From a bacterium (GTDB lineage Bacteria; JAHJDO01), in the NCBI GenBank assembly GCA_023129655.1, contig JAGMBN010000001.1, positions 1 to 56,523 on the forward strand: DNA of 56,523 bases, read 5' to 3'. Made by a program: the position numbers and the translations under genes. Under the pieces are notes generated by a model. It was not told where the DNA came from. It was given only the letters and a program-made list of their open reading frames with translations, and did not search any database. Shown piece after piece: positions 3,745 to 56,247 of the stretch. The first letter of the stretch is position 1, and each line of letters begins with the position of its first letter.

Positions 3745-3765
3745 GTAGAAAAATGAGAAACTTCT

Positions 3766-6573: not shown

Positions 6574-6589
6574 ACAGGCAGGAAATATC

Positions 6590-7822: not shown

Positions 7823-7836
7823 CGAAAGGACAAAAA

Positions 7837-11709: not shown

Positions 11710-11974
11710 AATACGTTATGCAGAAGAAGTAAAAATAGTTATAGATAAATTACCTCTAAAAAAGAAACGTCAAATTAAAGATGCTATTGAGCGTATAGCC
11801 AAATGCCCTGAAACAGGCAAGCGTCTTACACACGAATTAAAAGGATTGTTATCATATCGTTCAGGAACATATAGAATAATCTATCGCATTTATCATGAAG
11901 AGGTAACGATTTTAATATTGACTATAGGTCATAGAAAGAACATTTACAAACAAATTTCAAGAAGATTTAATTAA
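11702..11974 (+). CDS. type II toxin, RelE/ParE family
   Basis: ATG 11702 overlaps the antitoxin stop (ATGTATGA). YRIIYRIYHEEVTILILTIGHRKNIY is the characteristic C-terminal RelE/ParE pattern. Confidence 0.75.
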   Translation: MYEIRYAEEVKIVIDKLPLKKKRQIKDAIERIAKCPETGKRLTHELKGLLSYRSGTYRIIYRIYHEEVTILILTIGHRKNIYKQISRRFN

Positions 11975-14961: not shown

Positions 14962-14985
14962 TATAACGTAGAGAGGAGATATGAT

Positions 14986-16378: not shown

Positions 16379-16411
16379 AAATAAACTCCTTTTTTTATTT
16401 TAAATTTTTTA

Positions 16412-17215: not shown

Positions 17216-17228
17216 TATCTCATCTATA

Positions 17229-18275
17229 TTATAATGCATACAAGTTTTTACGTTTAGATATTGCGGCAAGGAGAGTGTACCAGCCGTTCAGAAAGCCATT
17301 TCTGAAAAGTTGCACGGGACCGTATTCTGCAAACTCATCAACTGTTAAAGCATTTTCTTCATAAGCTTTTCTGAAGTCCGGAAGTTTTGCCGACAATTCC
17401 TTAATCACCTCCAATGGAGTTTCAATATCAATCATGGATTCCACAGGGAAATCGCCGGCAATAAGTTCTGCCGCAGTGCTCCAGTTGATGGTAATGTGTG
17501 CGTCTCCGCCAACAATCCCAGTAAAATGCTTCAGCTCGCGTGCCCCCCCTCCGAGCATGATTGTTTTATAGCCGCGTTCTTTCAGCATGCGATACTGCTT
17601 GCGGGCAACCGCGCAACCTGCCTGCCCAAGAACTTCTGCAGAAATATTAATCCCTCCACAGGCGACTGTTTTCTGTAGATACTCATCAAAAATTCCGGTA
17701 ATGTGAGTAATGTAGAATGGTGGATGATTACCGGTTTTTGCCGCTGCTGACTTGTAAATTTCACACATGTGTATCGCCTGTGAAATAGAGAATACTTCTG
17801 TCGCGCAGATTGGGATATTCTGTTCTATGCATACTTCCAAAGCCTGTAGACTGCCTGGGATAACCGGGATTTTAGCCATGCAATTTTTTCCCAGTTTACG
17901 ATTTTTCAAGACGTTTTGTATTGTTGATTTGCCATCTTCGTCCTTTCTGGGATCATCCTGAATAGTTACAAATCCCATTTTGGCATGGTTTTGTTCGTAG
18001 AGAGGCATGAATATATCAATAGCCCTCTTGACAGCCTTCCTGTATACTATCGGTGCGGCCTCTTCGCAATCGTTGACTTCCCGAATCACCTCGTCAATCA
18101 ATTGATTCATATACTCAGGTTCGCTTTTCAACAGCTTGGAACAATAGGCAGGGTTCGTTGTGCAACTTACTGCACCGGCCGTCAATGCCTTCTTCATTTC
18201 TTCTTCCGTTGGGTTATTAATCCAGAACCTGGTTTCTGTCTGGCGATAAACACGATGAAAATAATCCTTCGACAT
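17229..18275 (-). CDS. transaldolase-family protein
   Basis: CTTNPAY, the Schiff-base lysine context MAKIPVIPGS, and ICATEVFSISQA. ATG 18275 is preferred over TTG 18290. Confidence 0.7.
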   Translation of the reverse strand: MSKDYFHRVYRQTETRFWINNPTEEEMKKALTAGAVSCTTNPAYCSKLLKSEPEYMNQLIDEVIREVNDCEEAAPIVYRKAVKRAIDIFMPLYEQNHAKMGFVTIQDDPRKDEDGKSTIQNVLKNRKLGKNCMAKIPVIPGSLQALEVCIEQNIPICATEVFSISQAIHMCEIYKSAAAKTGNHPPFYITHITGIFDEYLQKTVACGGINISAEVLGQAGCAVARKQYRMLKERGYKTIMLGGGARELKHFTGIVGGDAHITINWSTAAELIAGDFPVESMIDIETPLEVIKELSAKLPDFRKAYEENALTVDEFAEYGPVQLFRNGFLNGWYTLLAAISKRKNLYAL

Positions 18276-18328
18276 ATTAGCTACTTTCAAAATTCATTTT
18301 TATTAGAACCAACCATTTTTGCTAATAC

Positions 18329-19237
18329 TCATAACTGTCTCCAGGCATTTTTAAGTCTTTTAAAATTATCATTTACTGTGTAATCAACAGTTTTGCCGGG
18401 GAATGGAGTCATTTCTAGCAACAGGTCGCCGCGGTTTTTCTTGTCAAGAAAGCCGCAGTCAAGTAGCGCACGCAGGATTATTTTTAATTCTTGCACATCA
18501 ATTTCGCCGCCTTCAAAACCAATTGGCGGATGGGTGTCGCCCCAACGTGGACTGTTTTTGTCCTTCAACACGCAATTGCCCAAGTGGATACGTTTAAGAT
18601 ATGGCGCGGTGCGTTCGATCGCCGAAGTGAAATCCTCGCGCATCAACGGCAAATGTGCCACGTCAAGCTCAAAACCGAAATTATTGTGTTTTGCGCTAAT
18701 CCGCTTCGCCAGTTTAACGCAATCGTCAATCGGTCCATATAGGAATTTCTTGTCAATATCCATATCAAACGGCTCGAGCAACGCGGTAATGTGATGTTTT
18801 TCCAACTTGACGCAGAGTTCAGCACAGAAGCAGTCAAAGGCCGTGAAATCCTCCGGCACGGCAGCGTAAAACGACGGCGTACCAGCGGGAAAGATAAACC
18901 CTTCAGCACCAATCGCCGCGGCCTGATTAATCATATCGTCAAGGATCATCCAGGTCTGAGCGTGATTAGCGGGGTCTTTTGCCGCCAGCGGCAGACTCCG
19001 CAATGGATAAAAGTGGATTGCGAAACAAACCGTTTTCCTGCACTTACAGATTGCCGAAATAAGCTCATTCTGGTATTCGTCGCCATAGGGCAGACAACAG
19101 TCAAAAGTTTCGATATCCGTACGCTTTATGAACTCCAGCAGTGTTTTTACATGTGCTTCCGGATCGTTACCGCATTCGGGGTAAAGCAGATGATGAACCA
19201 AACCGAGTTTTGCGTATTCTCTGATGTTGCCAATCAC
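18329..19237 (-). CDS. sugar-phosphate isomerase/epimerase (xylose-isomerase-like TIM barrel)
   Basis: Pattern GFELDVAHL...RIHLGNC is typical of the AP-endonuclease-2/xylose-isomerase-like barrel. GTG 19237 is preceded by AGGAGG and overlaps the upstream stop (GTGA). The ORF-track maximum start is 19273. Confidence 0.6.
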   Translation of the reverse strand: MIGNIREYAKLGLVHHLLYPECGNDPEAHVKTLLEFIKRTDIETFDCCLPYGDEYQNELISAICKCRKTVCFAIHFYPLRSLPLAAKDPANHAQTWMILDDMINQAAAIGAEGFIFPAGTPSFYAAVPEDFTAFDCFCAELCVKLEKHHITALLEPFDMDIDKKFLYGPIDDCVKLAKRISAKHNNFGFELDVAHLPLMREDFTSAIERTAPYLKRIHLGNCVLKDKNSPRWGDTHPPIGFEGGEIDVQELKIILRALLDCGFLDKKNRGDLLLEMTPFPGKTVDYTVNDNFKRLKNAWRQL

Positions 19238-19509
19238 ATTACCTCCTGACAGGGTTTGTAAAAAACTCCCCATTCAGCGTAATAGGAGCCATCAGGATTT
19301 TCTTTCACCTTATTAAATTTCACTCCACAACAAACACCGTCAAAATCAAAATGTTCTTCAAAATCAGTTTGAGATCCTGCTTCAGGGAGAATAGCTTTGT
19401 AAACATTGGGGTCAATTACGAACTCAACTATTGGAACTTTGTCTGGTTCCTTGAGTTCCATTGCTGTCATAATACGCTCGAAAGAACTTAATTCCATTAT
19501 TTTCCTCAT
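19234..19509 (-). CDS. 91-aa ORF resembling only the N-terminus of URO-D-like proteins (possible remnant or small subunit)
   Basis: SSFERIMTAMELKEPDKVPIVEF...DGSYYAEWGV resembles the first quarter of URO-D-like enzymes (compare the genes at 7837 and 8923). It ends in a GTGA overlap with the next gene. Confidence 0.35.
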   Translation of the reverse strand: MRKIMELSSFERIMTAMELKEPDKVPIVEFVIDPNVYKAILPEAGSQTDFEEHFDFDGVCCGVKFNKVKENPDGSYYAEWGVFYKPCQEVM

Positions 19510-37471: not shown

Positions 37472-38110
37472 ATGAATTGGATGAAGTTTCTAAAGACTGT
37501 AGGGAAATTACCTGTAATTAATACTGAAAACTTATTTGCAGGTGTGTCTGATCCTACTGGAATTGAGGTGCAAATTAGCCGCTGGAACAAAGCAGGAAAG
37601 ATTATTCAGCTTAAAAGAGGAATGTATTTGCTTGCAGAGCCGTATCGTAAGATTGCAGTCTATGAGCCTTATATTGCTGCTATCTTAAAAAACCCTTCTT
37701 ACATCAGCATGGAAAAAGCGCTTGAGTATCATAATCTAATTCCTGAAGCAGTAACGGTATATACGTCAGTTACGACAAAAAGGCAAGGGAGATTTGTGTC
37801 CAAAGCAGGATTTTTTGATTACAGGCACATTAAGGAATCTCTTTTTTGGGGATATAAGTCAGCTACTGTTAATAAACAAACTGCTTTTATTGCGTCTTGT
37901 GAAAAAGCGCTCCTTGATTTTTTCTATGTAAAGAGGTTGAATATTTCATTAGATTATCTTTATGAGTTGAGACTTCAGAACGTAGAAAAAATTAATATTG
38001 AAAACTTGTTTGAATATGCTTGGCGATTTAAAAAACCAAAAATGTTATATGCAGCCAAAGTAATCAAGGAGTATAGCACCTTGATCAAGAAAGGAGAAAA
38101 GACATTATGA
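37472..38110 (+). CDS. AbiEi-family antitoxin/transcriptional regulator (type IV TA)
   Basis: 212 aa. The N-terminal wHTH-like region ISRWNKAGKIIQLKRGMYLL is typical of AbiEi. ATGA overlap with the downstream nucleotidyltransferase. Confidence 0.7.
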   Translation: MNWMKFLKTVGKLPVINTENLFAGVSDPTGIEVQISRWNKAGKIIQLKRGMYLLAEPYRKIAVYEPYIAAILKNPSYISMEKALEYHNLIPEAVTVYTSVTTKRQGRFVSKAGFFDYRHIKESLFWGYKSATVNKQTAFIASCEKALLDFFYVKRLNISLDYLYELRLQNVEKINIENLFEYAWRFKKPKMLYAAKVIKEYSTLIKKGEKTL

Positions 38111-38907
38111 GAGATTATGTTCTCGAGTTAGTTGCAACGAAAACCGGTTTTAACGCAAAATTAAATATCATGCGAGAATATCTTCAGGCATGTATTCTGA
38201 GAATTATGCATGATAATGGAGTGTTTCGTTCAACTGCATTTTTAGGCGGAACTGCGTTGCGGTTTCTTTATAATCTTCCACGTTTTTCAGAAGATCTGGA
38301 TTTTTCATCAACTGAGAATAAGCACTACACGTTCGCAGATTTAGTAATAAAGATTAAACAGGAATTAAAATTGGCAGGATATGATATTTCTGTATCTTAT
38401 AATGACGAAAAGACTGTTCGGCATGCAATGGTCAAGTTTGATAAATTGATGTATGAGGCAGGAATTTCACCTCATAAGGCGCAAAAGTTTTCAATAAAAA
38501 TTGAAATTGATACTAATCCACCTGAAGGAGCTGATTTAAAAACCGATATTGTCAATAAATATTTTCCAATTTCTTTTTTGTCTTATGATATTCCTTCTCT
38601 TTTTGCAGGTAAATTTCATGCATTATTGAGTAGAAAATATACTAAAGGACGTGATTTTTTTGATCTTGGATGGTATCTTTCGCGTTGGAAGGATATCTCA
38701 CCTAATATTGCTATGCTTCAAAATGCGCTCAAGCAAACCGGTTGGACTGGAGAAATGCCATCAGAACATACATGGCGAGATTTTCTTTATACTGTTGTTA
38801 AAGCGACAGATTGGCAAAAAATAGAACAGGATGTAGGAAACTTCTTAGAAAATCCTTCTGACATGAATATCTTTACTAAGAAAAATGTGCTTAGCTTGTT
38901 ACAGTGA
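38107..38907 (+). CDS. AbiEii/AbiGii nucleotidyltransferase toxin (DUF1814)
   Basis: 266 aa. FLGGTALRFLYNLPRFSEDLDF is the hallmark NTase motif of AbiEii. Confidence 0.8.
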   Translation: MRDYVLELVATKTGFNAKLNIMREYLQACILRIMHDNGVFRSTAFLGGTALRFLYNLPRFSEDLDFSSTENKHYTFADLVIKIKQELKLAGYDISVSYNDEKTVRHAMVKFDKLMYEAGISPHKAQKFSIKIEIDTNPPEGADLKTDIVNKYFPISFLSYDIPSLFAGKFHALLSRKYTKGRDFFDLGWYLSRWKDISPNIAMLQNALKQTGWTGEMPSEHTWRDFLYTVVKATDWQKIEQDVGNFLENPSDMNIFTKKNVLSLLQ

Positions 38908-44090: not shown

Positions 44091-45083
44091 ATGGATCCTA
44101 AATCAATAGAAGAAATTTTAAGTAAAAAACTCCTATTAGAACTCAGAAGATTGTTTTACAAAACTACCGGTATGACGATATCTTTTATAATTGGCAGGAG
44201 TGGAGGAGATGTAGATTTTTTCCCTAAGTCGAAAAGAAGTCGGTTCTGCAAGATCATACATTCCACGCAGAAGGGTAAGGCGCGGTGTTCTCTCGCGGAC
44301 ACAGAATCTATTAACACTGCTTTCAAGAACCGAAAACCTCATATTCATCAGTGCCATGCGGGACTTATTGATATCTATGTGCCCATAATAATGAAAAACA
44401 AACTCATTGGGGCTCTTGCTTCGGGACAAATACTTACTAATAAACCAACAGATAAAAAATTCCTTTCAATAAAAAAGAAAACCCAGGATTTAAAAATTGA
44501 CATTAACAAACTTAAAGATGCGTATAAAAAGGTTGAAGTTATTTCACGTGAGAAACTGGATATAGTAGTAAAACTCATGTTTTTTATGGCTAATTTTATC
44601 GTAGAAAAAGAATCTTTAATAATCTTGCAAAATAAACTTATTCAACAGCAGAAGAAGATAGAGGAAGCTAATAGGGAAAGAGAGCTGTGGAAAAAAGAAT
44701 TGAGAAAAGCTATGCCTTTTATTGAAATGCAAAGTGTCTCTGCTCAGGAACATTCACACCATGAAAAGATTATCGTGGAAGCCAAAAAATTTATTGAGAA
44801 AAACTCCGCAAAACCGTTAAATCTCAAAGATGTCGCAGAAGCGGTCTATCTGAGCCCTAATTACTTCAGTAATTTATTCAAACACTACACAAACTACACC
44901 TTTCATGAATATCTAACAAAGATTCGCATTGAGAATGCTAAAAAGTTTCTCAGCAGGTTAGCTCTCAATGTATCACAGGTATCAAATCTTGTTGGATATG
45001 ATGATCCTAACCATTTCAGCAAAGTGTTCACAAAAATAACAGGCTATTCTCCACAAAAATATCGTAAGATTTTTTTGAAATAA
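44091..45083 (+). CDS. AraC-family transcriptional regulator with N-terminal PocR sensor domain
   Basis: PocR-like Cys/His pattern FCKIIHSTQKGKARC...HQCHAGLIDIYVPI. C-terminal double-HTH AraC domain ending HFSKVFTKITGYSPQKYRK. Confidence 0.8.
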   Translation: MDPKSIEEILSKKLLLELRRLFYKTTGMTISFIIGRSGGDVDFFPKSKRSRFCKIIHSTQKGKARCSLADTESINTAFKNRKPHIHQCHAGLIDIYVPIIMKNKLIGALASGQILTNKPTDKKFLSIKKKTQDLKIDINKLKDAYKKVEVISREKLDIVVKLMFFMANFIVEKESLIILQNKLIQQQKKIEEANRERELWKKELRKAMPFIEMQSVSAQEHSHHEKIIVEAKKFIEKNSAKPLNLKDVAEAVYLSPNYFSNLFKHYTNYTFHEYLTKIRIENAKKFLSRLALNVSQVSNLVGYDDPNHFSKVFTKITGYSPQKYRKIFLK

Positions 45084-45159
45084 AAATCGTAAGAATATCC
45101 AGAAAAAAGCAAGATAATCCATAGACAAATCTGTAGCTGTGTTGTTATTATACATCGTA

Positions 45160-46455
45160 ATGAATATATTGTTTATTGTTCCTGATGCTCTGAGAGCTGA
45201 TAATCTTCATTGCTATGGATATCCAAATCAAACAAGTCCTTTCATTGATAAATTGGCAAAAGAAGGAATATTATTCAAAAACACAATAAGCACTTCATCA
45301 CATACCATGCCGGGTATTGTTTCTATGTTTACCGGGCTTGGTTCAATTACTCACGGTGTAAACGGTCCCAAAGAATATGAAGAGTGGAATAATGGCAAAC
45401 TATGGAGAGCATGGCAGACACCGTTTAATATTCTGAAAGAAAATGGTTATAAAATAGCCGGCTGTGACCAATGGATGTATAGCCAGTTAGGTTATGATAC
45501 AGAGATAAAGGACTTGAGTAATGCAATTGAAGAGTATAAAAATGAGAAATTTTTTATGTGGTGGGCGCCTTATCACACTCACCTTCCATATAATCCGGGA
45601 GATCCTTATGATGAAATGTTTATACCGGAAGGATATAAAATTAGTGAATCTACAAGAAAAAGATTGGAAGTTATAAAGACAAAAATGATTCTGCACAAAC
45701 CTGGTCTTTTAAGTCAATTTGAGGAGGACTTGGCAAAAGGAATTACAAGACGCTCAACTCACCCGATAACTGTGGCTACATTAACGGTAGAGAAAGAGGA
45801 TAAACCTGCAATTATGGCTTTATACGACGGAGAAGTAAGAACGCAGGATGAAGAGATAGAGAATTATATAAAAAAACTGGATGAATTGCATTTACTGGAT
45901 GAGACGATAATTGTAATAACTTCAGGTCATGGAGAAGAAATAGGTGAGAGAGGTTCAATAGGGCATGCATCTTGTTCGCTTGCAGGCACTTTGTATGATG
46001 AAAGCGTAAAAGTTCCGCTAATAATAAGATATCCTAAAGCGCTTCCAAAAGGGAAAGTCATTGATACTCAGGTTTCATTGATTGATATCATGCCGACAAT
46101 GTTTGAAATTATTGGGCTTGACATACCAAAAGAAACCGAAGGGCAGTCGCTTATGCCGCTTATAAGAGAAAAAACAGATTTTAGAGAAGAAGCATATTCA
46201 GAAACACGGCCGTGCGGATTTCAGCTTCGTGAGGGTGATGAAAGAAAGATATACGCTATAAGGACACCTGATTGGAAATTCATATATAATTATGATCCTA
46301 ATAACAAAGATAATTGCAAATATGAATTATACGATTTAAAGAACGATTCAGGAGAAAAGCGCAACTTGTTTAATAAAAAGACTGACATAGCAAATCAGTT
46401 TAAAGAAAAACTTGATAAATGGATTAAAAAGCCGTCGTTTCTTTTAAATAGATAA
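45160..46455 (+). CDS. alkaline-phosphatase-superfamily hydrolase, paralog of 13669-14961
   Basis: About two-thirds of residues are identical to the 13669 protein by eye. Same T-x-P-x-I nucleophile region (SHTMPGIVSMFTG), but TSGHGEE replaces TSDHGEE. Confidence 0.75.
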   Translation: MNILFIVPDALRADNLHCYGYPNQTSPFIDKLAKEGILFKNTISTSSHTMPGIVSMFTGLGSITHGVNGPKEYEEWNNGKLWRAWQTPFNILKENGYKIAGCDQWMYSQLGYDTEIKDLSNAIEEYKNEKFFMWWAPYHTHLPYNPGDPYDEMFIPEGYKISESTRKRLEVIKTKMILHKPGLLSQFEEDLAKGITRRSTHPITVATLTVEKEDKPAIMALYDGEVRTQDEEIENYIKKLDELHLLDETIIVITSGHGEEIGERGSIGHASCSLAGTLYDESVKVPLIIRYPKALPKGKVIDTQVSLIDIMPTMFEIIGLDIPKETEGQSLMPLIREKTDFREEAYSETRPCGFQLREGDERKIYAIRTPDWKFIYNYDPNNKDNCKYELYDLKNDSGEKRNLFNKKTDIANQFKEKLDKWIKKPSFLLNR

Positions 46456-46477
46456 TAGAACTTAGGAGCATGTGCCG

Positions 46478-47506
46478 ATGAAGTTGAAGATAGGTATAGC
46501 AGGTTTAATGCGTGGAAAGGTTTACGTGGATTGTTTTAGAAAAGCAGGCATAGAAATCAATGCGTTTTGCGACGCTAATGAACAAGTTTTGCGTCAGGCT
46601 GGGAAGGAATACAATGTTTCTAATCTATACAGCGATTACAATGAATTTCTCAATTCAGATATAGATGCAGTAGTGGTTGCAACTCCCTTGTCTCTGCATA
46701 CGGAACATTCTATTGCTGCTTTAAAGGCGGATAAGCATGTATTAAGTGAAGTTCCTCCTGTAAATTCTATAGAAGAAGCAAAAGAGTTAAAAAGAGCTGT
46801 TAAAGAAACAAAAGCCAAGTATATGCTGGCGCAGAACACCTGTTATTGGGCGCATATACAGGCATGGAGAAGGATGATCAAGGATGGAAAAATAGGGAAG
46901 ATCATATACGCAGAAACTGAATTTATTATGGAAAGCGTAATTGATCCCCGGCAAAAGCCAACATGGCGAGCGACTATGCCTCCGATCTGTTACTGCACAC
47001 ATAGTCTTGGTCCATTGCTTTCTATGATAGATGATAGATGCGTTAGCGCACAGGGATTTAAAACAGAAGCAACTGTTTGTAAGACAAAGCCTGATGCGGA
47101 ATTGGGAATTTTTAGAACTGAAAAGGGTGCTATAATAAAACTTCTTGTTGGATTTGGATTAAAAAGAAAACCTAGAGTATATTACTGGTCAATCTATGGG
47201 ACAAAAGGCTGTCTTGAAACACACCGGGATTTTAATAATGAAACAACACTGGCGTATTTTGATGATATTCCACATCTCAAAAATATGATTAATATTCCTC
47301 TTTCTCCTGACCACGTAAAAATGAACATTCCCGGCATGCATGGTGGGACAGAACATCTTTTAGTTAAGGATTTTGTGGAAAGCATCTTAGAGGATAAACC
47401 TGCACCCATTGGTATAAATGAGGCGTTAAGCTACGGATTGCCTGGCATCTGCGCTCATCAATCTGCAATGAATAATGGAGAAGAAGTAGAAATACCTGTT
47501 TTTTAA
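46478..47506 (+). CDS. Gfo/Idh/MocA-family NAD(P)-dependent oxidoreductase
   Basis: N-terminal Rossmann LKIGIAGLMRG, DAVVVATPLSLHTEHSIAALKADKHVLSEVP, and a C-terminal alpha/beta dimerisation-type domain. Confidence 0.8.
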   Translation: MKLKIGIAGLMRGKVYVDCFRKAGIEINAFCDANEQVLRQAGKEYNVSNLYSDYNEFLNSDIDAVVVATPLSLHTEHSIAALKADKHVLSEVPPVNSIEEAKELKRAVKETKAKYMLAQNTCYWAHIQAWRRMIKDGKIGKIIYAETEFIMESVIDPRQKPTWRATMPPICYCTHSLGPLLSMIDDRCVSAQGFKTEATVCKTKPDAELGIFRTEKGAIIKLLVGFGLKRKPRVYYWSIYGTKGCLETHRDFNNETTLAYFDDIPHLKNMINIPLSPDHVKMNIPGMHGGTEHLLVKDFVESILEDKPAPIGINEALSYGLPGICAHQSAMNNGEEVEIPVF

Positions 47507-47525
47507 AACAAAGGAGATAAAAACT

Positions 47526-48698
47526 ATGGCAAAACAAGGATTGGGAATGTCGGTAAGAACTTATGGTGAACGAGAGCAAAAACTTCTTCAACAGGTTCTT
47601 GCTTCGGGAAAGCTTTCATCCCTGGCAGGAGGGAAATTTGTTCCTGAATTAGAAAAAAAATTCGCCGAAGCAATTGGAACTAAATATGCAGTTGCAATGA
47701 ATTGTTGTATGAGCGCTCTTCATATCGCTTTGTTGAGCGCTGAAGTTGGAGCTGGAGATGAAGTGATTACTGATTCGGAATTTGTTTTTGGAGCTCAAGC
47801 AGTGCTCTATTGTAATGCAATTCCTGTTTTTGTGGATATCAATCCAGTTACTCATAACATGAACCCGAACAACATAGAAAAGGCGATAACTAAACGAACA
47901 AAGGCTATTATTGCTACTCATGCATGGGGATTGCCTGCTGAGATTGACAGGATTGTTGAAATTGGGCACAAACATAATCTTTTAGTTATTGAAGATTGCG
48001 CAGAATCAATTTTAGCTCCTTATAAAGGCCGAAATACAGGCAACTGGGGGGATATCGGGTGTTTTAGTTTTCAGTCAAGCAAACAATTATCAACAGGAGA
48101 CGGTGGGATGGCTACAACTAATGACGAAAAACTCGCTAAAATGCTTAGACAAGATTCCGGAGCTCCCACATCCGGCTCAATTGCTTATAATCTGCGTTAT
48201 GGTTACCGTATGACTGAAACAACAGCAGCTGTTGGATTAGCTCAGCTTGAACGTTTGCCTGATTTTATTGAAGGCCTTAAAATCAATGCTGAATATTTTG
48301 ATGAAGCGGTAGCTGAGTGTAAATGGATAGAACTCCAGCGCGGACCGGATGAGGCCGAGCATAGTTTTTATAAATGGGCTGCAACTTTTAAGGGAGAAGA
48401 ATACGGAATTGATCGTGAAGATTTTAAGAATGCCATTGAAAAAGCTGATTTCTCTTCGGTTTCCGTCGGCTATACTCATATGCCGAATTATAAGCATTCT
48501 TTGATCAAAGAGCACCTTGCTTATTCATTTCATTGTCCGAACAATAAAGAAAGCGATATTAGTTATCCTGAAGGTCTCTGTCCGAACGCAGAACATGTCA
48601 TTCCAAGACTTCTTATAGTTCGTATCATACAATCTGAGGAAACGGCAAAAAGAGAAGCTGAAAAATTGAATAAGGTTATAATGGAATTGGAGAAATAA
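47526..48698 (+). CDS. DegT/DnrJ/EryC1/StrS-family PLP-dependent aminotransferase
   Basis: 390 aa. CFSFQSSKQLSTGDGGMATT contains the PLP lysine context of the family. Confidence 0.85.
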   Translation: MAKQGLGMSVRTYGEREQKLLQQVLASGKLSSLAGGKFVPELEKKFAEAIGTKYAVAMNCCMSALHIALLSAEVGAGDEVITDSEFVFGAQAVLYCNAIPVFVDINPVTHNMNPNNIEKAITKRTKAIIATHAWGLPAEIDRIVEIGHKHNLLVIEDCAESILAPYKGRNTGNWGDIGCFSFQSSKQLSTGDGGMATTNDEKLAKMLRQDSGAPTSGSIAYNLRYGYRMTETTAAVGLAQLERLPDFIEGLKINAEYFDEAVAECKWIELQRGPDEAEHSFYKWAATFKGEEYGIDREDFKNAIEKADFSSVSVGYTHMPNYKHSLIKEHLAYSFHCPNNKESDISYPEGLCPNAEHVIPRLLIVRIIQSEETAKREAEKLNKVIMELEK

Positions 48699-48699
48699 A

Positions 48700-49425
48700 T
48701 TGATAATTGATGCTCACTGTCAGATTGGCAAAGGGCGGTTTTATGATGTGTCCAGTAAGGATTTGATAAAAGAGATGCGTATATGCAGAATAGAAAAAGC
48801 TTTTATATGTCCTGGGGAGACAGAAATTGCCTCAGATTGTAACAGTGCCAATGAAAAAATGGCGAATATTAAGAAAGATTTTCCTGACAAATCTAGAGCA
48901 TGGGCAGTAGCTAATCCGTGGACAGGTAAGAATGCAGTAAAAACTTTAAAGACTGCCAAGCAGCTTGGGCTGGACGGATTAAAACTTCATCCAAAAGTTC
49001 AAGGATATAATCTGAGTGATAGAATGCTTTATCCTTTAATAGAGTTTGCGCTGGATGTAAATTGGCCGATATATGCAGATACAGGCACTCCAATATGCTC
49101 AGAGCCAATGCAGCTTGTTGAACTTGCAGAGAAATTTCCAAAAGCAAAGTTTATAATGGGACATATTGCTTTTGCGGATTTCTGGTATGATGTTGTTGAA
49201 GCTATGAAACGTTCGGATAATATCTGGGCGGAAACCTCTCATCATGGTTCTGGCATGTTAAAGGCAGTTGTTTCTGAAATTAGTTCTGATAAACTGATCT
49301 TCGGGTCTGATTTTCCCATAGGAAATATAGAAGTAGAGTTGGGAAAGGTGAAAAACTTAGATTTATTTGATAAAGATTTAGAAAAAGTTCTCTTCCATAA
49401 TATAGAAGGATTAATGGATAAATGA
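48700..49425 (+). CDS. amidohydrolase-2 (PF04909-like) metal-dependent hydrolase
   Basis: TTG start. MIIDAHCQIG, GLKLHP and FGSDFP motifs. Confidence 0.65.
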   Translation: MIIDAHCQIGKGRFYDVSSKDLIKEMRICRIEKAFICPGETEIASDCNSANEKMANIKKDFPDKSRAWAVANPWTGKNAVKTLKTAKQLGLDGLKLHPKVQGYNLSDRMLYPLIEFALDVNWPIYADTGTPICSEPMQLVELAEKFPKAKFIMGHIAFADFWYDVVEAMKRSDNIWAETSHHGSGMLKAVVSEISSDKLIFGSDFPIGNIEVELGKVKNLDLFDKDLEKVLFHNIEGLMDK

Positions 49426-50198
49426 GGATAATTGACGCTCATTCTCATGTTATGTTCGGCTCATGGATGGGTTCAATACCTGACCCTGAAGGCAAAAAAC
49501 TTATCAAAGAGCTTGAAACATGCAATATAAGTTCAGCCGTCATTTCAGCTATTGACAGTCTTATTACCACAGACTTCAAGCTGCAGCAAAAGATAAACGA
49601 AAAGGTGTCTGCCTTGCAAAATAAATATGATAAAATTCTTTACGGACTTGGAACAGTTACTCCAAACGCCGGCAAAAAAGTAGCTATGGAGATTAAAAGA
49701 TGCAAGGAAAAACTTGGGCTTTATGGTCTAAAATTACATACATGGCTTCAGGCATTTTCAGTTATGGCAAAGGATTGTGATTACATATTTAAGACTGCTT
49801 CTGAATTAGGCATGCCTATTCTTTTCCACGACGGCACACCGCCATACTCAACACCTTTACAAATAGCGCATATAGCGCATAAGTATCCCAATCTTAAGAT
49901 CATATTAGGACATGGCGGACTCAAAGATATGTGGATAGATGCTCTTGAAGCAGCAAAAAAGAATAAGAATATTTATATTGCAACTTGTGGTACGCCATAT
50001 CTCGGGATAAAAACTATGATAAAAGAACTCGGCATTGAAAGAATTATGTTTGGTTCAGATTCTGGATTTGCGGATGCATCACAGACTATTTACCAGTTAA
50101 ACAATGTGAAAAAGCAGAACCTTAAAAAAGCCGAATTAGAATTAGCTCTCTATAAGAACGCTAACAGGATATTTTCCTTAAACCAAAACTTGGAATAA
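49422..50198 (+). CDS. second amidohydrolase-2 (PF04909-like) hydrolase
   Basis: MRIIDAHSHV, GLKLHT, ILGHGG and FGSDSG. ATGA overlap with the preceding paralog. Confidence 0.65.
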   Translation: MRIIDAHSHVMFGSWMGSIPDPEGKKLIKELETCNISSAVISAIDSLITTDFKLQQKINEKVSALQNKYDKILYGLGTVTPNAGKKVAMEIKRCKEKLGLYGLKLHTWLQAFSVMAKDCDYIFKTASELGMPILFHDGTPPYSTPLQIAHIAHKYPNLKIILGHGGLKDMWIDALEAAKKNKNIYIATCGTPYLGIKTMIKELGIERIMFGSDSGFADASQTIYQLNNVKKQNLKKAELELALYKNANRIFSLNQNLE

Positions 50199-50214
50199 CG
50201 AGAAGTAAATAATT

Positions 50215-51975
50215 GTGATAAACTTACATGAATGCAGTGGAAATTTTTCAATTTTAGCTGTAGTAGATACTAGCAAGGATGAATTTAGATATGTTGAACA
50301 GGGGTTCTTTCTTGCTTTTGAACATTTAGGGATTCCTTACAGAATAATAGATTTATCAAAAGAAAAATTAACTCCTGAAGAAATAGCTAATTCCCGAGCT
50401 ATTGTTATTGCTCAGGAAGGTATAGGAGAAAATTTTTCTTCGGCTGATGGAGACAGCATTAAAAAGTCCATAGAAGAGTCTGGTATAGGGTTGATTAATT
50501 TTGATCATCGCATAAATTCTTATCCTTCTGACCTTCGTAATATACTTATTGGAACAGATAAGAATATTAAATTCTATACATCAAAAGGACTGCAAATAAA
50601 AAACAACACTCATTTTATTACTGAAACATATGAAGAAAATCAAAAGGCAGAATTTTTGCAGGATATTGAAATGTCAATTCTGCCATCGTCTTTTGAGAAA
50701 GATAATCTTATTAGCTCATTAGAAAATTATCCTGTTCTGAGATTGTCGCGTCTTGGTAAAGGAAGAGTTATCCAATTTCTTATTTCTTCCAGGATGTGGC
50801 ATTCTGAATATTTTGGACACCTGAGTGGTTTTGACGCACTTTTTTATAAGTCGATTATCTGGGTTGCAAAAAAACCATTTCTTATGATGGCAATGCCTCC
50901 GTTTGTTACAGCAAGAATAGACGATTGTTCAGGGTCTGGAAGCCATTACATAACAAACAAAGAAAGTACAGTGATAAATTTCAGATACATTGATACATTA
51001 AATAAATATGGTTATATTCCTAATATCGGTTTGTTTCTTGATGACATCACAGACAGTGACGGAAAAATCATAAAGGAAAAATACGATAAGAAACTTGCTG
51101 AATTCTCTCCGCATGCATTTGGAGAAAGTGAGGACAGAAAGATTAAACGGCTTATTTATATGAAACATAACGGAGAGGAATATACTAAGAAAGAACTTAT
51201 AAGAAATTTTGAGAAAGTAGACAGGAAATTTTCTTCATGGGGAATAAAACCATCAAGAGCGCTTAACGCTCACTATGGTGAAACAGGAGTGAACTCTATC
51301 CCATTCTTAAAAGAAAGAAATCAGAATTTTGTAATGTCTCTTTCCGTGTCGTTTGGCAGCTGCTGGAGTAATTCTCCTTCTCATGATTGGAAACCCTATG
51401 AAATAAGAAGAAAAGACGGGAAATATGCTTTTATTGCTGATTATATGCCAGATTATCCTGAATTCTTTAATCTATCAAATGTGTTTCCTTGCGAAAATCG
51501 CATTGATTTTCTTCTTAAAAACACAAAATTCGAGGGAGAAAATAAAAAGAATGATATAGAAGAAACAATAAAAAAAGGAGTTGAGATAATAACACTGAGC
51601 CTGGATAGTTTATTCTTTGGATGTCTCCTGACACATGAACAGAGGATATCTGCTATGAGTCTCTGGGAATGGGAACAAGTTTTGAATGGTATAGATAAAT
51701 TAACTTCAAAATATAAAAAGATATTTAAAGGATATGACTATATTGCTGAATACGCAAAGAGCAGATATGATACAAAAATAACAGAGGCAAATTGTAACTC
51801 CACAATAGACCAGATAACATTAAAACTAAAGGGTAAATCCAGTTTGCCGCTAAAAGTTTATGTTTATGCTGATGAAAGCTGTCAACACAAATTTAAAGAA
51901 ATACCAGTATTTGAGGGAAAACTCACCCTGACCCTCTCTTTGAAAGAGAGGAAACAAAAAGACGAAAGGAAATAG
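50215..51975 (+). CDS. 586-aa protein of unassigned family (ThuA/GATase1-like N-terminal pattern plus unknown C-terminal domain), AT-rich copy
   Basis: Long ORF with a GTG start. It shares blocks with the next gene: HLGIPY, G(I/V)GL(I/V)xFD, H(F/Y)ITxT, GxGR, KSI(I/V)WxAxKPF, AMPPFxTAxxDDCSGS, FRYxDTxNKYG and THEQR. Confidence 0.8.
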   Translation: MINLHECSGNFSILAVVDTSKDEFRYVEQGFFLAFEHLGIPYRIIDLSKEKLTPEEIANSRAIVIAQEGIGENFSSADGDSIKKSIEESGIGLINFDHRINSYPSDLRNILIGTDKNIKFYTSKGLQIKNNTHFITETYEENQKAEFLQDIEMSILPSSFEKDNLISSLENYPVLRLSRLGKGRVIQFLISSRMWHSEYFGHLSGFDALFYKSIIWVAKKPFLMMAMPPFVTARIDDCSGSGSHYITNKESTVINFRYIDTLNKYGYIPNIGLFLDDITDSDGKIIKEKYDKKLAEFSPHAFGESEDRKIKRLIYMKHNGEEYTKKELIRNFEKVDRKFSSWGIKPSRALNAHYGETGVNSIPFLKERNQNFVMSLSVSFGSCWSNSPSHDWKPYEIRRKDGKYAFIADYMPDYPEFFNLSNVFPCENRIDFLLKNTKFEGENKKNDIEETIKKGVEIITLSLDSLFFGCLLTHEQRISAMSLWEWEQVLNGIDKLTSKYKKIFKGYDYIAEYAKSRYDTKITEANCNSTIDQITLKLKGKSSLPLKVYVYADESCQHKFKEIPVFEGKLTLTLSLKERKQKDERK

Positions 51976-51977
51976 AG

Positions 51978-53729
51978 ATGAATAACATCGTACAAGATCA
52001 ACAGTCAGAAGGTAATGGTACGGTATTGTTGTTAGCAGACAGTTCTGATGACAAGGCGTATAGTTATGTTGAAGAGACAATGCTTGCAGCACTCGGACAT
52101 CTGGGTATCCCATATAAAATCAGGGACATAGAGACAGACATTCTATCAAGAAAAGAGTTGCTTGAGCATAGTTGTGTGATTCTGGGACAAAATTGTCTTG
52201 GGAAAAAGCTCGGGCAGAAGGGTGCCGAAATTTTAAGAGATGCGGTTGGAGCTGGAGTAGGGCTTGTCAGTTTTGATGGCGATCTTGGAAGTTACAGTAA
52301 GGCATTTTTTGAGATTTTTAGGATAAATATCGGAAGAACTCCTCTTCTTTGTTCAGACATTAAAACAGTAAATGTTGAGCATTATATAACAGGTACGCGT
52401 GAGCTGGATGATGATGTTACTCTTTATAAACCCTTGGAAGTGTGGCCGATTGAAAGTCCACACTGCGGTTCTGTTGGTAAAAGTTTACTGCAGACCTCCA
52501 ACAATTGGCCGGTTCTGATTGCAAGCACCCATGGTCAGGGACGAGCAGTGCTTTTTACCGGTTCCGTCAAGTTATGGATAAGAGATATTTTAGGTCATGC
52601 ATCAGGACTGGATGATGTATTCTGGAAATCAATCGTGTGGGCAGCTCGCAAGCCCTTTGCAATCTATGCAATGCCGCCCTTTGCCACTGCCCTTGTGGAT
52701 GACTGCAGTGGTTCTTACAATCACTTTCGTTATGTAGATACAATGAATAAATACGGGTGGCTCCCGCACGTGTCGATTTTTCTGGAGAACATTGACAGGG
52801 TAATACACCAAGCTGATTATGCAGACTCTGCGAAGATGAAGGCGCTGTACGATGCCGGGCTGGCGGAGTTTAGCGTGCATGGTTTTACGTACGAAAACCT
52901 GGCGGTTTTCAATCACAGGGCAAGAAAACCACTTTCAGATGAACAAATCGTGGGGAATTTCAAGCGAATAGATGCCTATTTTAAAAAATGGGGAATTACC
53001 CCCAGCCGCTGGCAGAATTACCACTTTTGCGAGATGGGAACGAATGCATTTCCCTATATGAAGGAGCGAGGCGTTGAGTATTTGCACATGGAACTGAATC
53101 CGGATACAGCATGGTTGGATGTTCCAGATAACAAACCTGCTTTCAGACCACCTAAGCCATATCATCACCGGGGATTTTACATGGATTATCTGGAGCAGGA
53201 CACTGATTTCTTTATTTTCCATTCCATGCTGAATCCATGGGGGTTTGACTCGCCCGACTTTGTGCAAGAGACCGATTTTCTGTGGAACCATACGATTTTT
53301 TGGGACGAAAGTCCCTGTAATAATGTAGAGGATGCAGCTCGTATAGGAATAAAGCAGATCCGACGGGGGATTGATGCCAGATTTTTTGGGTATATCCTGT
53401 GTCACGAGCAACGGGTGGCGGTGGTATCCATGAAAGAATGGGACAAAATATTAGGCAGTATCCACGATGGGCTGAAGAAGTATGATTTAATCTATCGGGC
53501 GCCTGAATATATCCTTGATTATGCTCGCAGTCATTACGACACACGGATTGCGGATGTGTCAGTAAATAATGAGAGCGGCAAGGTACACTGCAAAATGCAG
53601 GGAAAAACTCGTTTAACAACAGCATTAGAGGTATATATAAATAATGAAAACAGTGTGCAGTGTGAATTATGCGATATTCCGCAATTCACAGGGACAGTGA
53701 ATGTGAAAATGCAATGTCCATTACCATAG
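51978..53729 (+). CDS. 583-aa homolog of the preceding gene, GC-rich copy
   Basis: ATG after AAGGAAATAGAG. It shows the same conserved blocks as 50215-51975 but a visibly different base composition. Confidence 0.8.
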   Translation: MNNIVQDQQSEGNGTVLLLADSSDDKAYSYVEETMLAALGHLGIPYKIRDIETDILSRKELLEHSCVILGQNCLGKKLGQKGAEILRDAVGAGVGLVSFDGDLGSYSKAFFEIFRINIGRTPLLCSDIKTVNVEHYITGTRELDDDVTLYKPLEVWPIESPHCGSVGKSLLQTSNNWPVLIASTHGQGRAVLFTGSVKLWIRDILGHASGLDDVFWKSIVWAARKPFAIYAMPPFATALVDDCSGSYNHFRYVDTMNKYGWLPHVSIFLENIDRVIHQADYADSAKMKALYDAGLAEFSVHGFTYENLAVFNHRARKPLSDEQIVGNFKRIDAYFKKWGITPSRWQNYHFCEMGTNAFPYMKERGVEYLHMELNPDTAWLDVPDNKPAFRPPKPYHHRGFYMDYLEQDTDFFIFHSMLNPWGFDSPDFVQETDFLWNHTIFWDESPCNNVEDAARIGIKQIRRGIDARFFGYILCHEQRVAVVSMKEWDKILGSIHDGLKKYDLIYRAPEYILDYARSHYDTRIADVSVNNESGKVHCKMQGKTRLTTALEVYINNENSVQCELCDIPQFTGTVNVKMQCPLP

Positions 53730-54484
53730 GCTTTTGGGATTTGGTTTTAGTAGTAGTAGTTTCTTTACAGGCAACGATACTGGCATATTTTTATCAGCCT
53801 AAATGGAAGGCTTTTATGCTGACATTGCCTATTCCATTTACAGTTGCGTGCATGGCAGTGGGACGTCCCATTGATGCGACCAATGTTTTGGGGCTGATTT
53901 TACTTCTGGGTTTTACACATGGGGTCAGGTTGTTGCATTATAAATTCCACTTGCAAATTATTCCGGCTATTGCGCTGGCTGTCTTGAGCTATTGTCTGTT
54001 GGGCTGGATTATTGTCGGTATTTTGCCGGAGGATAAAATTATTTTCTGGGTATCCAGTATCTGTGCACTTATTATTGCAGTGGTTTTGCTTAAGATGTTA
54101 CCTCATCGCGCCGAACAGGGACATCGTAGTTCTTTACCTGTATGGATTAAGCTTCCCATCATCGTTGGCGTGGTGCTTTTTTTGGTAGCAATCAAGAAAA
54201 ATTTGCATGGTTTTATGACTGTTTTTCCCATGGTAGGGGTTATTGCAGCTTATGAAGCGAGGAATAGTTTATGGACAATCAGTCGCCAGATTCCTGTGGT
54301 AATGCTTACAATGATACCAATGATGATGGTTTGTCAACTTACTCAAAACAGTGTTGGTTTGGGATTTTCTCTTGTCCTGGGCTGGGTTGTTTTTATACTG
54401 ATGTTAATTCCCATAACGAAGTTCATGTGGTCTGCTGAAACAGCAGCGGCAGATAAATCAGAAAAGGCTATAAATGTTGAATAA
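53714..54484 (+). CDS. polytopic inner-membrane protein (about 7-8 TM helices), unassigned
   Basis: Almost entirely hydrophobic helices (LVLVVVVSLQATILAYF, IPAIALAVLSYCLLGWIIVGIL and others). Start uncertain (ATG 53714 or 53669). Confidence 0.7.
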   Translation: MSITIGFWDLVLVVVVSLQATILAYFYQPKWKAFMLTLPIPFTVACMAVGRPIDATNVLGLILLLGFTHGVRLLHYKFHLQIIPAIALAVLSYCLLGWIIVGILPEDKIIFWVSSICALIIAVVLLKMLPHRAEQGHRSSLPVWIKLPIIVGVVLFLVAIKKNLHGFMTVFPMVGVIAAYEARNSLWTISRQIPVVMLTMIPMMMVCQLTQNSVGLGFSLVLGWVVFILMLIPITKFMWSAETAAADKSEKAINVE

Positions 54485-54497
54485 TTAGGAGATAGAT

Positions 54498-55829
54498 ATG
54501 TCAAAATCAGCACACGAAGCTACCGGAAGCAAACCAACAAGTTCCAAGCCGGATGACGGCGTTACACTAAGAGTTCCCTACTCTTATTTTGGCGCAATGT
54601 ATGATAAAGAAGAGGAAAAAGCAGTTCTTGTGGCAATGAAGCAGGACAGGCAGACCAAAGGACCTCATCTGGAACAATTCCAAAAGGAGTTTGCAGGTAT
54701 GTGCGAAGTAAAACATGCTCTTGCAGCTTCTAACTGCACTACTGCAATGCACGCGGCAACCCAGGCATTTGGCATCAAACAAGGGGATGAAGTCATTATT
54801 ACACCAAACACATTTATTGCTACTTCTCTTGTGCTTTTAAAAGAGGGAGCTAGACCTGTCTATTCAGACATTGATCCAAAAACGTATAATATTGATCCAA
54901 AACAGATAGAAGAGAAGATAACGCCCAAAACAAAAGCAATTTATGTTGTTCACTACGGTGGGCAGATGTGTGATATGGATCCTATAATGGAAATTGCAAA
55001 AAAACATAATCTGTACGTTCTGGAAGACTGCGCGCATACACCTGGAGCAGAATACAAAGGAAGGAAAGCGGGAAGTATCGGAGATATGGGGTGCTTCAGC
55101 TTTCATTCATTGAAGAACATGACAACACTAGGCGAAGGAGGCATGGTTACAACCAATAATGACGAGATAGCGGCAAAAGTAGCAAGGCTTCGCGCAATGA
55201 ATACAGCGGCATGGGACTTCCCTGAAAAACAAAATACATTCAATTTCGCAGGATATACATTAACAAAAACAGGTATATCCGATTACTGGATTCCGTCTCA
55301 TCATGATGTGATAGATGATGATGGGAAATGGGGAAACAATTATAGAATGAATGAAACTCAGGCTGCAGTTGGTATATGCCAGCTAAAAAAGTTAAAATGG
55401 ATGAATGAAAAACGGAGGGAATTCGGACGCTATATCAATGAAGCAATAAAAGATATTGAAGGCATAACCCCAGTATATGAAGACCCAAACTGTTACCATG
55501 TTTATCATCTTTACACTCTTTGTGTTGAAGAAGAAATGGGTATAGAAAGAGATGCTTTTATGCGGATTCTTTATAGAGAGCATGGCATTCAGCCCATACT
55601 TCATTATCAGCCCACATATCACTATACCGGGTTAAAAAAGCTGGGTTATCCTGACAAGCTCTGTCCAGTTGCAGAAAAATTCTTTTACAAAAGAGAACTA
55701 AATCTTCCCATACATCCAAGATTAACTAAGGAAGACTGTAACATAATGATTGAAGGAATTAAGAAAGCTGCAGAAAAGGTGAGAAAGCAAATAGAGAATT
55801 TAGATGAGCATGGGCTCTTTTCTTCTTAA
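54498..55829 (+). CDS. second DegT/DnrJ/EryC1/StrS-family aminotransferase
   Basis: 443 aa. CFSFHSLKNMTTLGEGGMVTT contains the PLP lysine context. It has a longer N-terminus than the first copy. Confidence 0.85.
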   Translation: MSKSAHEATGSKPTSSKPDDGVTLRVPYSYFGAMYDKEEEKAVLVAMKQDRQTKGPHLEQFQKEFAGMCEVKHALAASNCTTAMHAATQAFGIKQGDEVIITPNTFIATSLVLLKEGARPVYSDIDPKTYNIDPKQIEEKITPKTKAIYVVHYGGQMCDMDPIMEIAKKHNLYVLEDCAHTPGAEYKGRKAGSIGDMGCFSFHSLKNMTTLGEGGMVTTNNDEIAAKVARLRAMNTAAWDFPEKQNTFNFAGYTLTKTGISDYWIPSHHDVIDDDGKWGNNYRMNETQAAVGICQLKKLKWMNEKRREFGRYINEAIKDIEGITPVYEDPNCYHVYHLYTLCVEEEMGIERDAFMRILYREHGIQPILHYQPTYHYTGLKKLGYPDKLCPVAEKFFYKRELNLPIHPRLTKEDCNIMIEGIKKAAEKVRKQIENLDEHGLFSS

Positions 55830-56001: not shown

Positions 56002-56247
56002 ATGGAAGCATCTATTATTGATCTTAGATATAAAATGAAAGATATTCTCAAGGCTCTTAACCGTAAAGAGAATGTAAAAATTCTCTATCACGGCAAAGAA
56101 AAAGGGATAATAATTCCCTTGAAAGAAAGAAGTAAAAAGAAGGTAATGGACTATCATTTCTATGGTATGTACAAAAAAGATAACTATGAGCAGACTGTTG
56201 CACAGCAGATACATTCTCTGCGTGGAGGCAGATACAATGATATTTGA
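56002..56247 (+). CDS. type II antitoxin (partner of the PIN toxin)
   Basis: 81 aa, strong RBS, and its 3' end overlaps the PIN-toxin ATG by 11 nt. The N-terminal region is Phd/YefM-like by eye. Confidence 0.55.
   Translation: MEASIIDLRYKMKDILKALNRKENVKILYHGKEKGIIIPLKERSKKKVMDYHFYGMYKKDNYEQTVAQQIHSLRGGRYNDI

Follow-up and report, generated by a model that had tools for sequence, protein, structure and literature searches.

Two adjacent genes of similar length and sharply different base composition raise the question of what their products do and how they came to stand side by side. They occupy positions 50215 to 53729 of the window, by which we mean the whole analysed stretch of 56,523 nucleotides (contig JAGMBN010000001.1, assembly GCA_023129655.1, from a bacterium of the lineage JAHJDO01), and are referred to here as A and B:

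50215-51975, + strand: open reading frame (ORF) A, paralogue A, the resident copy; GTG start, 586 amino acids (aa)
51978-53729, + strand: ORF B, paralogue B, the acquired copy; 583 aa

Our analysis suggests that A and B are Agd3-like predicted deacetylases with a cytoplasmic catabolic role and that B was acquired horizontally, a composite reading that we regard as reasonably probable. The two ORFs lie on the same strand (+) with a gap of 2 nt, and BLASTP aligns their products over the full length (31% identity, 53% positives, E 4e-106), in agreement with a preliminary description of this DNA, made from the sequence alone, which had recognised here two homologs of ~585 aa. All eight conserved blocks quoted in that description are found in the alignment, one of them in altered form, as B has CHEQR where A has THEQR.

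Fold and predicted active site of A and B

The preliminary description could not name a family for the two proteins, and at the sequence level this holds: neither A nor B matched a Pfam or NCBIfam model or a PDB sequence above threshold (phmmer), so that the family is resolved by structure prediction only. AlphaFold2 models were built from a 77-sequence alignment and reached a high confidence (predicted local distance difference test, pLDDT, 95.2 for B and 94.7 for A; predicted template-modelling score 0.94 each). In both models the assignment of secondary structure by DSSP gives the same architecture, namely an alpha/beta/alpha domain of ThuA/GATase1-like type, then a distorted (beta/alpha)7 barrel, and at the C-terminus a beta-sandwich:

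A: ThuA/GATase1-like domain, ~aa 12-222; CE4-type barrel, ~aa 228-500; beta-sandwich, ~aa 505-577
B: ThuA/GATase1-like domain, ~aa 15-227; CE4-type barrel, ~aa 233-500; beta-sandwich, ~aa 508-579

Comparison of the models with PDB by Foldseek revealed Agd3 (6nwz) as the best match of B (E 4e-12, whole-chain template-modelling (TM) score 0.58 on the query), followed by PelA (9cgy), and NDST1 (8cd0) as the best match of A (E 4.5e-9, 546 columns). The barrels of A and B matched the CE4 entries 3rxz, 3qbu and 3cl6 (TM 0.5-0.6 on the target), and the N-terminal ~225 residues matched the ThuA-like 1t0b (TM 0.62-0.65 on the target), the GATase1-like 3rht and the GATase-like domains of several glycosidases. 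The structure search thus yields an Agd3/PelA/NDST1-like architecture with no sequence-level family assignment, and it bears out two earlier suggestions, that the N-terminal part follows a ThuA or class-I glutamine-amidotransferase-like fold and that the region with the DDCSGS motif might be a deacetylase-like barrel. The beta-sandwich, which makes up the last ~75 aa of both proteins, had been overlooked.

Traces of the same relationships were found by sequence comparison of the wider family. Among the 77 members, Pfam returned ThuA for 13, Polysacc_deac_1 for 12 (at E<=1, best E 2.2e-4) and DUF2194, which is the PelA_DA family (PMC7890745), for 3 (weak, best E 2.6e-4). DUF2194 matched neither A nor B, and neither of them matches ThuA (PF06283) at E<=0.01, the likeness to 1t0b being one of fold alone, in a domain that is here fused to a barrel. 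The best match of the family profile among PDB sequences (hmmsearch) was 3rht, the entry named as nearest neighbour for the CBM87 domain of Agd3 (PMC7229062).

Conservation was counted over 191 full-length members and is given in B numbering. Invariant or near-invariant are D241 (190 of the 191), D242 (187), H301, H349, R364 (184), P394, D433 (Asp or Glu), H476 (190) and E477, and the equivalents in A (D236, D237, H300, H353, R368, D431, H474 and E475) are all intact. Since A and B both retain every conserved residue, both are presumably catalytically active. In the model of B the DD pair ends the barrel strand 235-243, H301 ends the strand 297-302 and H476 ends the strand 471-476, and these strand ends are the presumed sites of the CE4 motifs MT1/CM1, MT2/CM2 (its first His) and MT5/CM4, respectively. 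An MT3-like R/K344...H349 and an MT4-like D433-F-L-W can be aligned weakly, Pfam aligning residues 240-368 to model positions 13-123, and the residue at -2 from H476 is M, V, F or L. Judged by sequence, the conserved residues (DD, His, Arg, Asp, His-Glu) fit a predicted metal-dependent deacetylase. No Cys is conserved in the N-terminal domain among the 191 sequences (the elbow reads G-x-G-L-V-x-F-D, and the one column nearby that contains Cys, 98, has it in 47 of them), and hence this domain is not an amidotransferase; H41 and Q71 are invariant in it.

In the chemistry that we propose, the barrel would hydrolyse an N-acetyl or similar amide by metal-assisted acid/base catalysis. D241, the first Asp of the DD pair, would serve as the base, D242 and H301 as metal ligands, and H476 as the acid, backed by E477 and/or D433, with R364 or R344 positioning the base. 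The second His of HxxxH is absent and would have to be replaced, perhaps by H349 or H313; H313 is 75% conserved and, like the invariant H349, a candidate stand-in.

Several results on fold and motifs speak against assigning deacetylase function to A and B. PF01522 scores only 16.1 bits with B (E 0.011), under the gathering cut-off of 23.1, and A has no match; hhalign of the family profile with a genuine PF01522 protein from locus L006 gave a probability of 0.2%, with a weak hint of register for MT2/MT3. Moreover, the second His of HxxxH (MT2/CM2), a motif that is canonical in CE4, CE18, CE21 and CE26, is absent across the 191 members, in which the position +4 after H301 is occupied mainly by Y (72), D (59), W (22) or E (21), with HGFTY in B and HAFGE in A.

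The missing HxxxH, along with the presence of PuuE (3cl6) among the structural matches, lends some weight to the alternative that A and B are not deacetylases: the barrel may have been re-purposed, as in the metal-independent CE4-fold allantoinase PuuE, or the ThuA-like domain may act together with GFO/IDH/MocA oxidoreductases on keto-sugars, as ThuA does with ThuB. In the thuAB pairing a ThuA-like protein goes with a GFO-type partner, and the combination of a ThuA-like domain with GFO neighbours at our loci echoes it; the invariant H41 and Q71 suggest as well that the N-terminal domain is more than a scaffold. We nevertheless consider this alternative unlikely. The strongest conservation falls on the CE4 catalytic positions (DD on strand 1, His on strand 3, His-Glu on the last strand), every one of the top whole-chain matches is a genuine de-N-acetylase, and acetyl-amine chemistry is indicated both by N-acetyltransferase neighbours and by fusions to GNAT acetyltransferases, found in two members (P0242 and P0118) with the module behind the GNAT domain.

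With a deacetylase as the preferred reading, the closest known systems can be compared. Agd3 of Aspergillus fumigatus (CE18 + CBM87, 6NWZ) appears from the models to have the same domain order as A and B, and in all three the DD follows barrel strand 1, while strand 3 and the last strand each terminate in a His (PMC7229062). The identity in the Foldseek alignment is ~10%, and 6NWZ was not returned by phmmer of A or B or by the 77-sequence hmmsearch against all PDB sequences (E<=10). The spacing from DD to His is 59 residues in the A/B family, which has no beta2 insertion, and >120 in Agd3; with D433 the family retains an acidic residue that may take the MT4 role, whereas Agd3 has no MT4 Asp. 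The Agd3 type is secreted and encoded in an exopolysaccharide cluster, whereas A and B are cytoplasmic by prediction and no synthase or export genes adjoin them.

The three-domain design also covers the N-terminal two-thirds of NDST1 (PMC10864358), whose N-deacetylase half (8CD0) begins with a Rossmann-like domain and continues with a (beta/alpha)7 deacetylase that has DD and a catalytic His; HxxxH (H389/H393), the fused sulfotransferase, the Golgi location and the biosynthetic role of NDST1 are all lacking in A and B. PelA (CE21, 9CGY) and PelA_DA of B. cereus (CE26/CBM114) have a ThuA-like domain, a CE4-like deacetylase and a beta-rich C-terminus (PMC12022489, PMC13254593), but they are periplasmic or extracellular, belong to pel operons, act on an alpha-1,4-GalNAc polymer and retain HxxxH; PelA has a GH166 domain in addition. 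Of the CE26 traits, neither a transmembrane helix in A or B nor pel genes at the locus were found. CE4/NodB enzymes (PF01522; atypical 3rxz, HpPgdA 3qbu, PuuE 3cl6) have the barrel fold, the MT1 DD and the MT5 His in common with A and B, and their MT3 Arg and MT4 Asp have candidate equivalents there, but A and B are without the MT2 HxxxH and carry extra N- and C-terminal domains. The ThuA-like 1t0b and the GATase1-like 3rht have the same fold as the N-terminal domain, which in A and B is fused to the barrel and has no catalytic Cys. By the defining tests of sequence, Pfam score, HxxxH, secretion and cluster context, the A/B family is outside CE4, CE18, CE21, CE26 and NDST. It is likely a new, mostly cytoplasmic branch of the known deacetylase clan and, if activity is shown, probably a new carbohydrate esterase (CE) family.

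The family is large. Word-indexed searches revealed 187 relatives of B and 137 of A, and a profile search of 1.84 billion cluster representatives returned 780 with E<=1e-3, 361 of them with E<=1e-30, so that the family comprises ~780 clusters at the 50% identity level. In GTDB species genomes a scan yielded 211 loci, from Planctomycetales/Phycisphaerae, Anaerolineae, Spirochaetes, Bathyarchaeia, Omnitrophota, Latescibacterota, Gemmatimonadota, Verrucomicrobia, Paenibacillus and Longilinea arvoryzae, and the source annotation of the relatives is 'hypothetical protein' almost throughout. No signal peptide, transmembrane segment or hydrophobic N-terminus was found in A or B. Among the long relatives (820-2984 aa), all 12 that were checked have a signal-peptide-like hydrophobic N-terminus. 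The three-domain module is the N-terminal part of long proteins (P0262-P0335; up to 5165 aa in the match list), and those scanned with Pfam showed fused LamG, fn3, PASTA, DUF11 or MBG domains. No relevant report of a characterised cytoplasmic ThuA-deacetylase fusion, or of an operon of this type, was found in the literature, and a 2026 paper on the mining of N-deacetylases does not involve the A/B family.

The horizontally acquired insertion carrying B

B and the membrane-protein gene behind it form a horizontally acquired, strain-variable insertion between the resident A and its native aminotransferase gene, DegT2. The features concerned are:

51933-51951, + strand: hairpin CCTCTC TTTGAAA GAGAGG at the 3' end of A, seen by inspection and by alignment with loci L001 and L092
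51958-54502, + strand: inserted segment with B and the membrane-protein gene, 2545 bp, G+C content (GC) 0.428; L092 has a 93-bp spacer instead
53714-54484, + strand: multi-pass membrane protein of an unannotated family, 256 aa if the ATG at 53714 is the start (an ORF of 271 aa that begins at 53669 was also called)
54498-55829, + strand: DegT2, a DegT-family aminotransferase (Pfam 1.4e-109; its 90%-identity cluster has 18 members)

The decisive comparison is with L092, a 4010-bp contig from a sister sample. Its positions 522-3797 are 96.98% identical to window positions 48681-51957, which include both Amidohydro_2 genes and A (blastn, 3277 bp), and its positions 3891-4010 correspond to window positions 54503-54622, the start of DegT2 (blastn). 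The left breakpoint falls at ~51951-51957, just past the hairpin, and homology to L001/L002 resumes at 54503. Orthologues of A that are 81-84% identical and syntenic occur in loci L001-L003 and L093-L095 of low-GC metagenome-assembled genomes (MAGs), and in L001, L002/L003 and L093-L095 A is directly followed by DegT. The preliminary description had proposed that one of the two copies was acquired separately together with the downstream membrane-protein and DegT genes. This stands for B and the membrane-protein gene but fails for the DegT gene: DegT2 is 92-94% identical to the DegT that comes right after A in relatives without B (L001-L003), and hence is the native partner of A, and its codon usage is typical of the window.

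The spacer of L092 (3798-3890, 93 bp) contains (GAAAAAT)x6, and repeats of the GGGAAAT type are found in L002 (~11725-11760), so that the spacer varies between genomes. This spacer between A and DegT is exactly the part that the insertion has replaced in the window. The C-terminus of A (…SLKERKQKDERK; window 51943-51975) is 11 codons longer than in the 97%-identical L092, where TGA stands at the hairpin and the protein is otherwise identical, with the last 11 aa absent. Part of the extension comes from the inserted DNA, and disorder is predicted for it (residues 583-586 have a pLDDT <50).

Base composition gives a concordant picture. GC and third-position GC (GC3) are 0.333 and 0.267 in A and 0.438 and 0.428 in B, compared with a mean GC of 0.388 (standard deviation 0.032) and a mean GC3 of 0.341 (standard deviation 0.052) among 42 long ORFs of the window, and among sliding windows of 1750 bp A is within the bottom 0.5% and B within the highest 1.6%. 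The sharp difference noticed earlier from hand counts over single 60-nt lines (19/60 in A, 31/60 and 29/60 in B, all of them exact) is therefore real; the profile is not uniform, with A low and B high. At the 179 aligned positions where the residue is identical and its codons are degenerate, A has a GC3 of 0.229 and B one of 0.402 (sign test p = 0.0015), and thus the contrast is synonymous and not a matter of amino-acid content. Codon usage agrees with the insertion. Ranked among the 42 ORFs by a scaled chi-square of codon usage against the rest of the window, the membrane-protein gene comes 6th, B 10th, DegT2 30th and A 38th: B and the membrane-protein gene are atypical, A and DegT2 typical. 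The low GC of A is common to its orthologues (0.33-0.35), and so is a family trait and not a mark of foreign origin.

In the neighbour-joining tree A and B belong to family clades that are far apart, each with much closer relatives elsewhere (81-84% identical for A, 70-76% for B), as expected from the earlier argument that they are not a recent tandem duplication. B lies inside a clade of proteins that are 70-76% identical to it (P0002-P0009), of which the named members are labelled Planctomycetales, and the sister clade bears labels of Kiritimatiellia and Phycisphaerae; the next relatives of A outside its own lineage are ~50% identical. The contigs of B's nearest relatives, labelled Planctomycetales, Kiritimatiellia or Phycisphaerae, have 52-56% GC, and the provenance of its closest sampled relatives from higher-GC contigs explains the jump in composition.

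For the membrane protein at least 531 homologues were found, the best 67% identical; they are typically 245-260 aa long and come from contigs of 50-63% GC. The protein has six hydrophobic segments above the cut-off and no Pfam match. A joint transfer of its gene and B from one of the sampled B-clade loci was considered and rejected, as tblastn found no homologue in L004-L008 and the contexts of the homologues are unrelated and variable.

Some observations count against the insertion. With a GC of 0.438, B is well below its nearest relatives (0.53-0.56), so that either the true donor has not been sampled or the cassette is an accessory element of longer standing in this lineage. A search of positions 51700-54750 for direct and inverted repeats as a mobile-element signature gave only short matches at chance level, and a deletion in the L092 lineage instead of an insertion here is formally conceivable. 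The same points are in favour of an explanation in which A and B are an old, vertically inherited tandem pair, B has been lost from the relatives by deletion, and the composition reflects gene-specific constraint: in GC, B is nearer to the host (0.386) than it is to its closest relatives, the search for mobile-element scars was negative, and paralogues of the family recur next to each other (L009/L010, L013, L084) or with a second copy at <7 kb (L012, L034). However, four separate relatives (81-97% identity) have A and then DegT, which would need repeated precise deletions; B groups with the 70-76% identical proteins of higher-GC contigs, whereas the outside relatives of A reach only ~50%; and atypical codons are found in B and the membrane-protein gene, not in A or DegT2. 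We therefore judge a tandem pair of this kind to be improbable.

A further conceivable origin is an assembly chimera, in which B and the membrane-protein gene of another organism were mis-joined to the contig. The window is metagenome-derived, and a variant without the segment co-occurs in the sister sample. Yet native sequence stands on both flanks, the ORFs are intact and tightly packed, as the short gap between A and B illustrates, and the junctions from A through B and the membrane-protein gene to DegT2 are 100% identical in three other assemblies: an ENA scaffold, an NCBI MAG contig and an independent Logan contig (single run). Since the arrangement is reproduced in all three, it is not a chimera, and we give this explanation hardly any weight. 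The insertion of B together with the membrane-protein gene thus remains the account that we follow.

Operon context and proposed role

The operon runs in the order AP_endonuc_2, PocR/AraC, sulfatase, GFO/IDH/MocA, DegT1, two Amidohydro_2 genes, A, B, membrane protein, DegT2. The members upstream of A are:

44091-45083, + strand: likely the operon's regulator, with PocR sensor, AraC type (PocR 8.9e-34; HTH_AraC/HTH_18); a 77-81% identical orthologue heads the L001-L003 locus
45139-46455, + strand: sulfatase with SGSH_C (Sulfatase 9.7e-43, SGSH_C 8.7e-25); a 49-50% identical counterpart is present in L001-L003
46472-47506, + strand: GFO/IDH/MocA NAD-dependent oxidoreductase (Pfam); weak GH109_C (PF21252) in the precomputed annotation of L096
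47526-48698, + strand: DegT1, a DegT/DnrJ/EryC1 pyridoxal-phosphate aminotransferase (Pfam 5.3e-78; under all NCBIfam equivalog cut-offs)
48700-49425 and 49422-50198, + strand: two overlapping Amidohydro_2 genes (Pfam 2.1e-23 and 7.7e-25)

The operon is a mosaic around a conserved core that extends from PocR to A and DegT. The block between the sulfatase and A (window 46472-50198) is variable. It holds GFO, DegT1 and two Amidohydro_2 genes in the window and in L092, two URO-D genes and CBM9 in L001 (7217-9995), a LamG protein in L093 (1405-2103), and M20, a D-Ser-dehydratase-like gene and SDR, with URO-D further on, in L002 (4400-10001).

Since neither protein has a signal peptide and the PocR/AraC operon looks catabolic, we infer a cytoplasmic catabolic role for A and B. 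They would deacetylate an N-acetylated amino sugar or amino-glycoside in the cytoplasm, transamination by DegT would remove the freed amine, and redox chemistry by GFO would follow. The loci of the B clade contain ROK, GFO, several DegT, AP_endonuc_2, Creatininase, one or two family members, the Amidohydro_2 pair, Antibiotic_NAT and M20; the Amidohydro_2 pair, ~40% identical, follows the B-clade genes in L004 and L006. Paenibacillus oceani has two members of the family on either side of genes for GH20, a GH109-like GFO, a DHDPS-family protein and a Zn-ADH, with an AraC regulator upstream and a D-Ser-dehydratase-like gene, M20, SDR and a second GFO downstream. Glycosyltransferase and export genes are missing from all these loci.

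Such neighbours do not extend to the whole family. Of 79 genome loci, 15 have DegT and 13 have GFO within 3 kb; counted by gene, DegT occurs 16 times at <=3 kb, 5 times at 3-6 kb and twice at >6 kb. A family-wide DegT/GFO neighbourhood rule was rejected, adjacency being present in about 20-30% of these loci. That the pair adjoins family genes in only about a fifth of the sampled loci detracts from the proposed pathway, and the DegT/GFO inference is limited to the A and B clades.

The C3 amination of UDP-GlcNAc(A) and the synthesis of kanosamine classically involve a pair of GFO/IDH/MocA and DegT enzymes. The operon may accordingly be read as biosynthetic, with GFO, DegT and acetyl enzymes building or remodelling an envelope amino-sugar (cf. 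WbpB/WbpE/WbpD and GnnA/GnnB) and A and B trimming acetyls from precursors, and the best NCBIfam model of DegT2 is PseC, below the cut-off. We find this rather unlikely, because no glycosyltransferase, nucleotidyltransferase, flippase, polymerase or export genes were present in the window operon or in L001-L008, and the neighbours comprise substrate-responsive PocR/AraC, ROK and GntR regulators, sulfatase, FGGY kinase, aldolases, glycoside hydrolases, GH20 and M20.

The catabolic role can be extended to a bolder proposal, which we hold as tentative and on the whole doubtful. The family of A and B would then be a new CE family and, within the Agd3/PelA/NDST clan, the first branch that is cytoplasmic and catabolic, with a re-wired Asp/His/distal-His metal site instead of HxxxH. 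A route of deacetylation, transamination (DegT) and redox chemistry (GFO/IDH/MocA) would remove the nitrogen of N-acetylated amino-sugar glycans, perhaps of the alpha-GalNAc or sulfated GlcNAc type, in anaerobic sediment bacteria and Bathyarchaeia, and phyla would exchange paralogous cassettes of differing specificity, which would be fitted into existing operons.

Other features of the window and significance

Outside the operon, a second and stronger composition island was found at 15542-19273 on the - strand (GC 0.41-0.47, GC3 up to 0.51). It comprises four genes (acetoacetate-decarboxylase-like, AP_endonuc_2, transaldolase-like and AP_endonuc_2), among them the two with the most atypical codon usage of the window, and may be another acquired sugar-catabolic cassette. 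The sulfatase of the operon has a paralogue at 13669-14961; both consist of Sulfatase and SGSH_C, and their 3' parts share ~79% nucleotide identity over ~500 bp (14481-14975 and 45978-46468). At 37472-38907, between isocitrate dehydrogenase and purH, a gene for an AbiEii-type nucleotidyltransferase toxin (38107-38907) follows an unannotated 212-aa ORF; both genes have atypical codon usage, and they are likely a type IV toxin-antitoxin pair. An 81-aa ORF (56002-56247) overlaps with the beginning of a PIN-domain gene, itself cut by the end of the window (56523), and the two are likely a toxin-antitoxin pair as well; the longer ENA scaffold (L096, 10025-11782) continues with FlpD and a Polbeta/HepT-like pair. 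Finally, two adjacent ORFs at 6554-8898, of 422 aa and 359 aa, have no Pfam match at E<=1e-5 and a slightly raised GC of 0.417 and 0.424, the 359-aa ORF ranking fourth for atypical codon usage.

The acquisition of B is in itself an ordinary evolutionary event, though an unusually well documented one. It provides an example of operon growth, in which a 2.5-kb cassette with a xenologous paralogue has settled beside the resident homologue while the empty site is kept in a 97%-identical relative. The characterised enzymes with the same three domains (Agd3, PelA, PelA_DA and NDST1) have each founded a CAZy family or explained a major glycan modification, and all of them are secreted or Golgi-resident and biosynthetic. 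A family for which neither Pfam nor NCBIfam has a model is a real annotation gap, and an assignment to the deacetylase clan with a testable active site would improve the annotation of many uncultured genomes. Such an assignment also points to an undescribed cytoplasmic route of amino-sugar catabolism.

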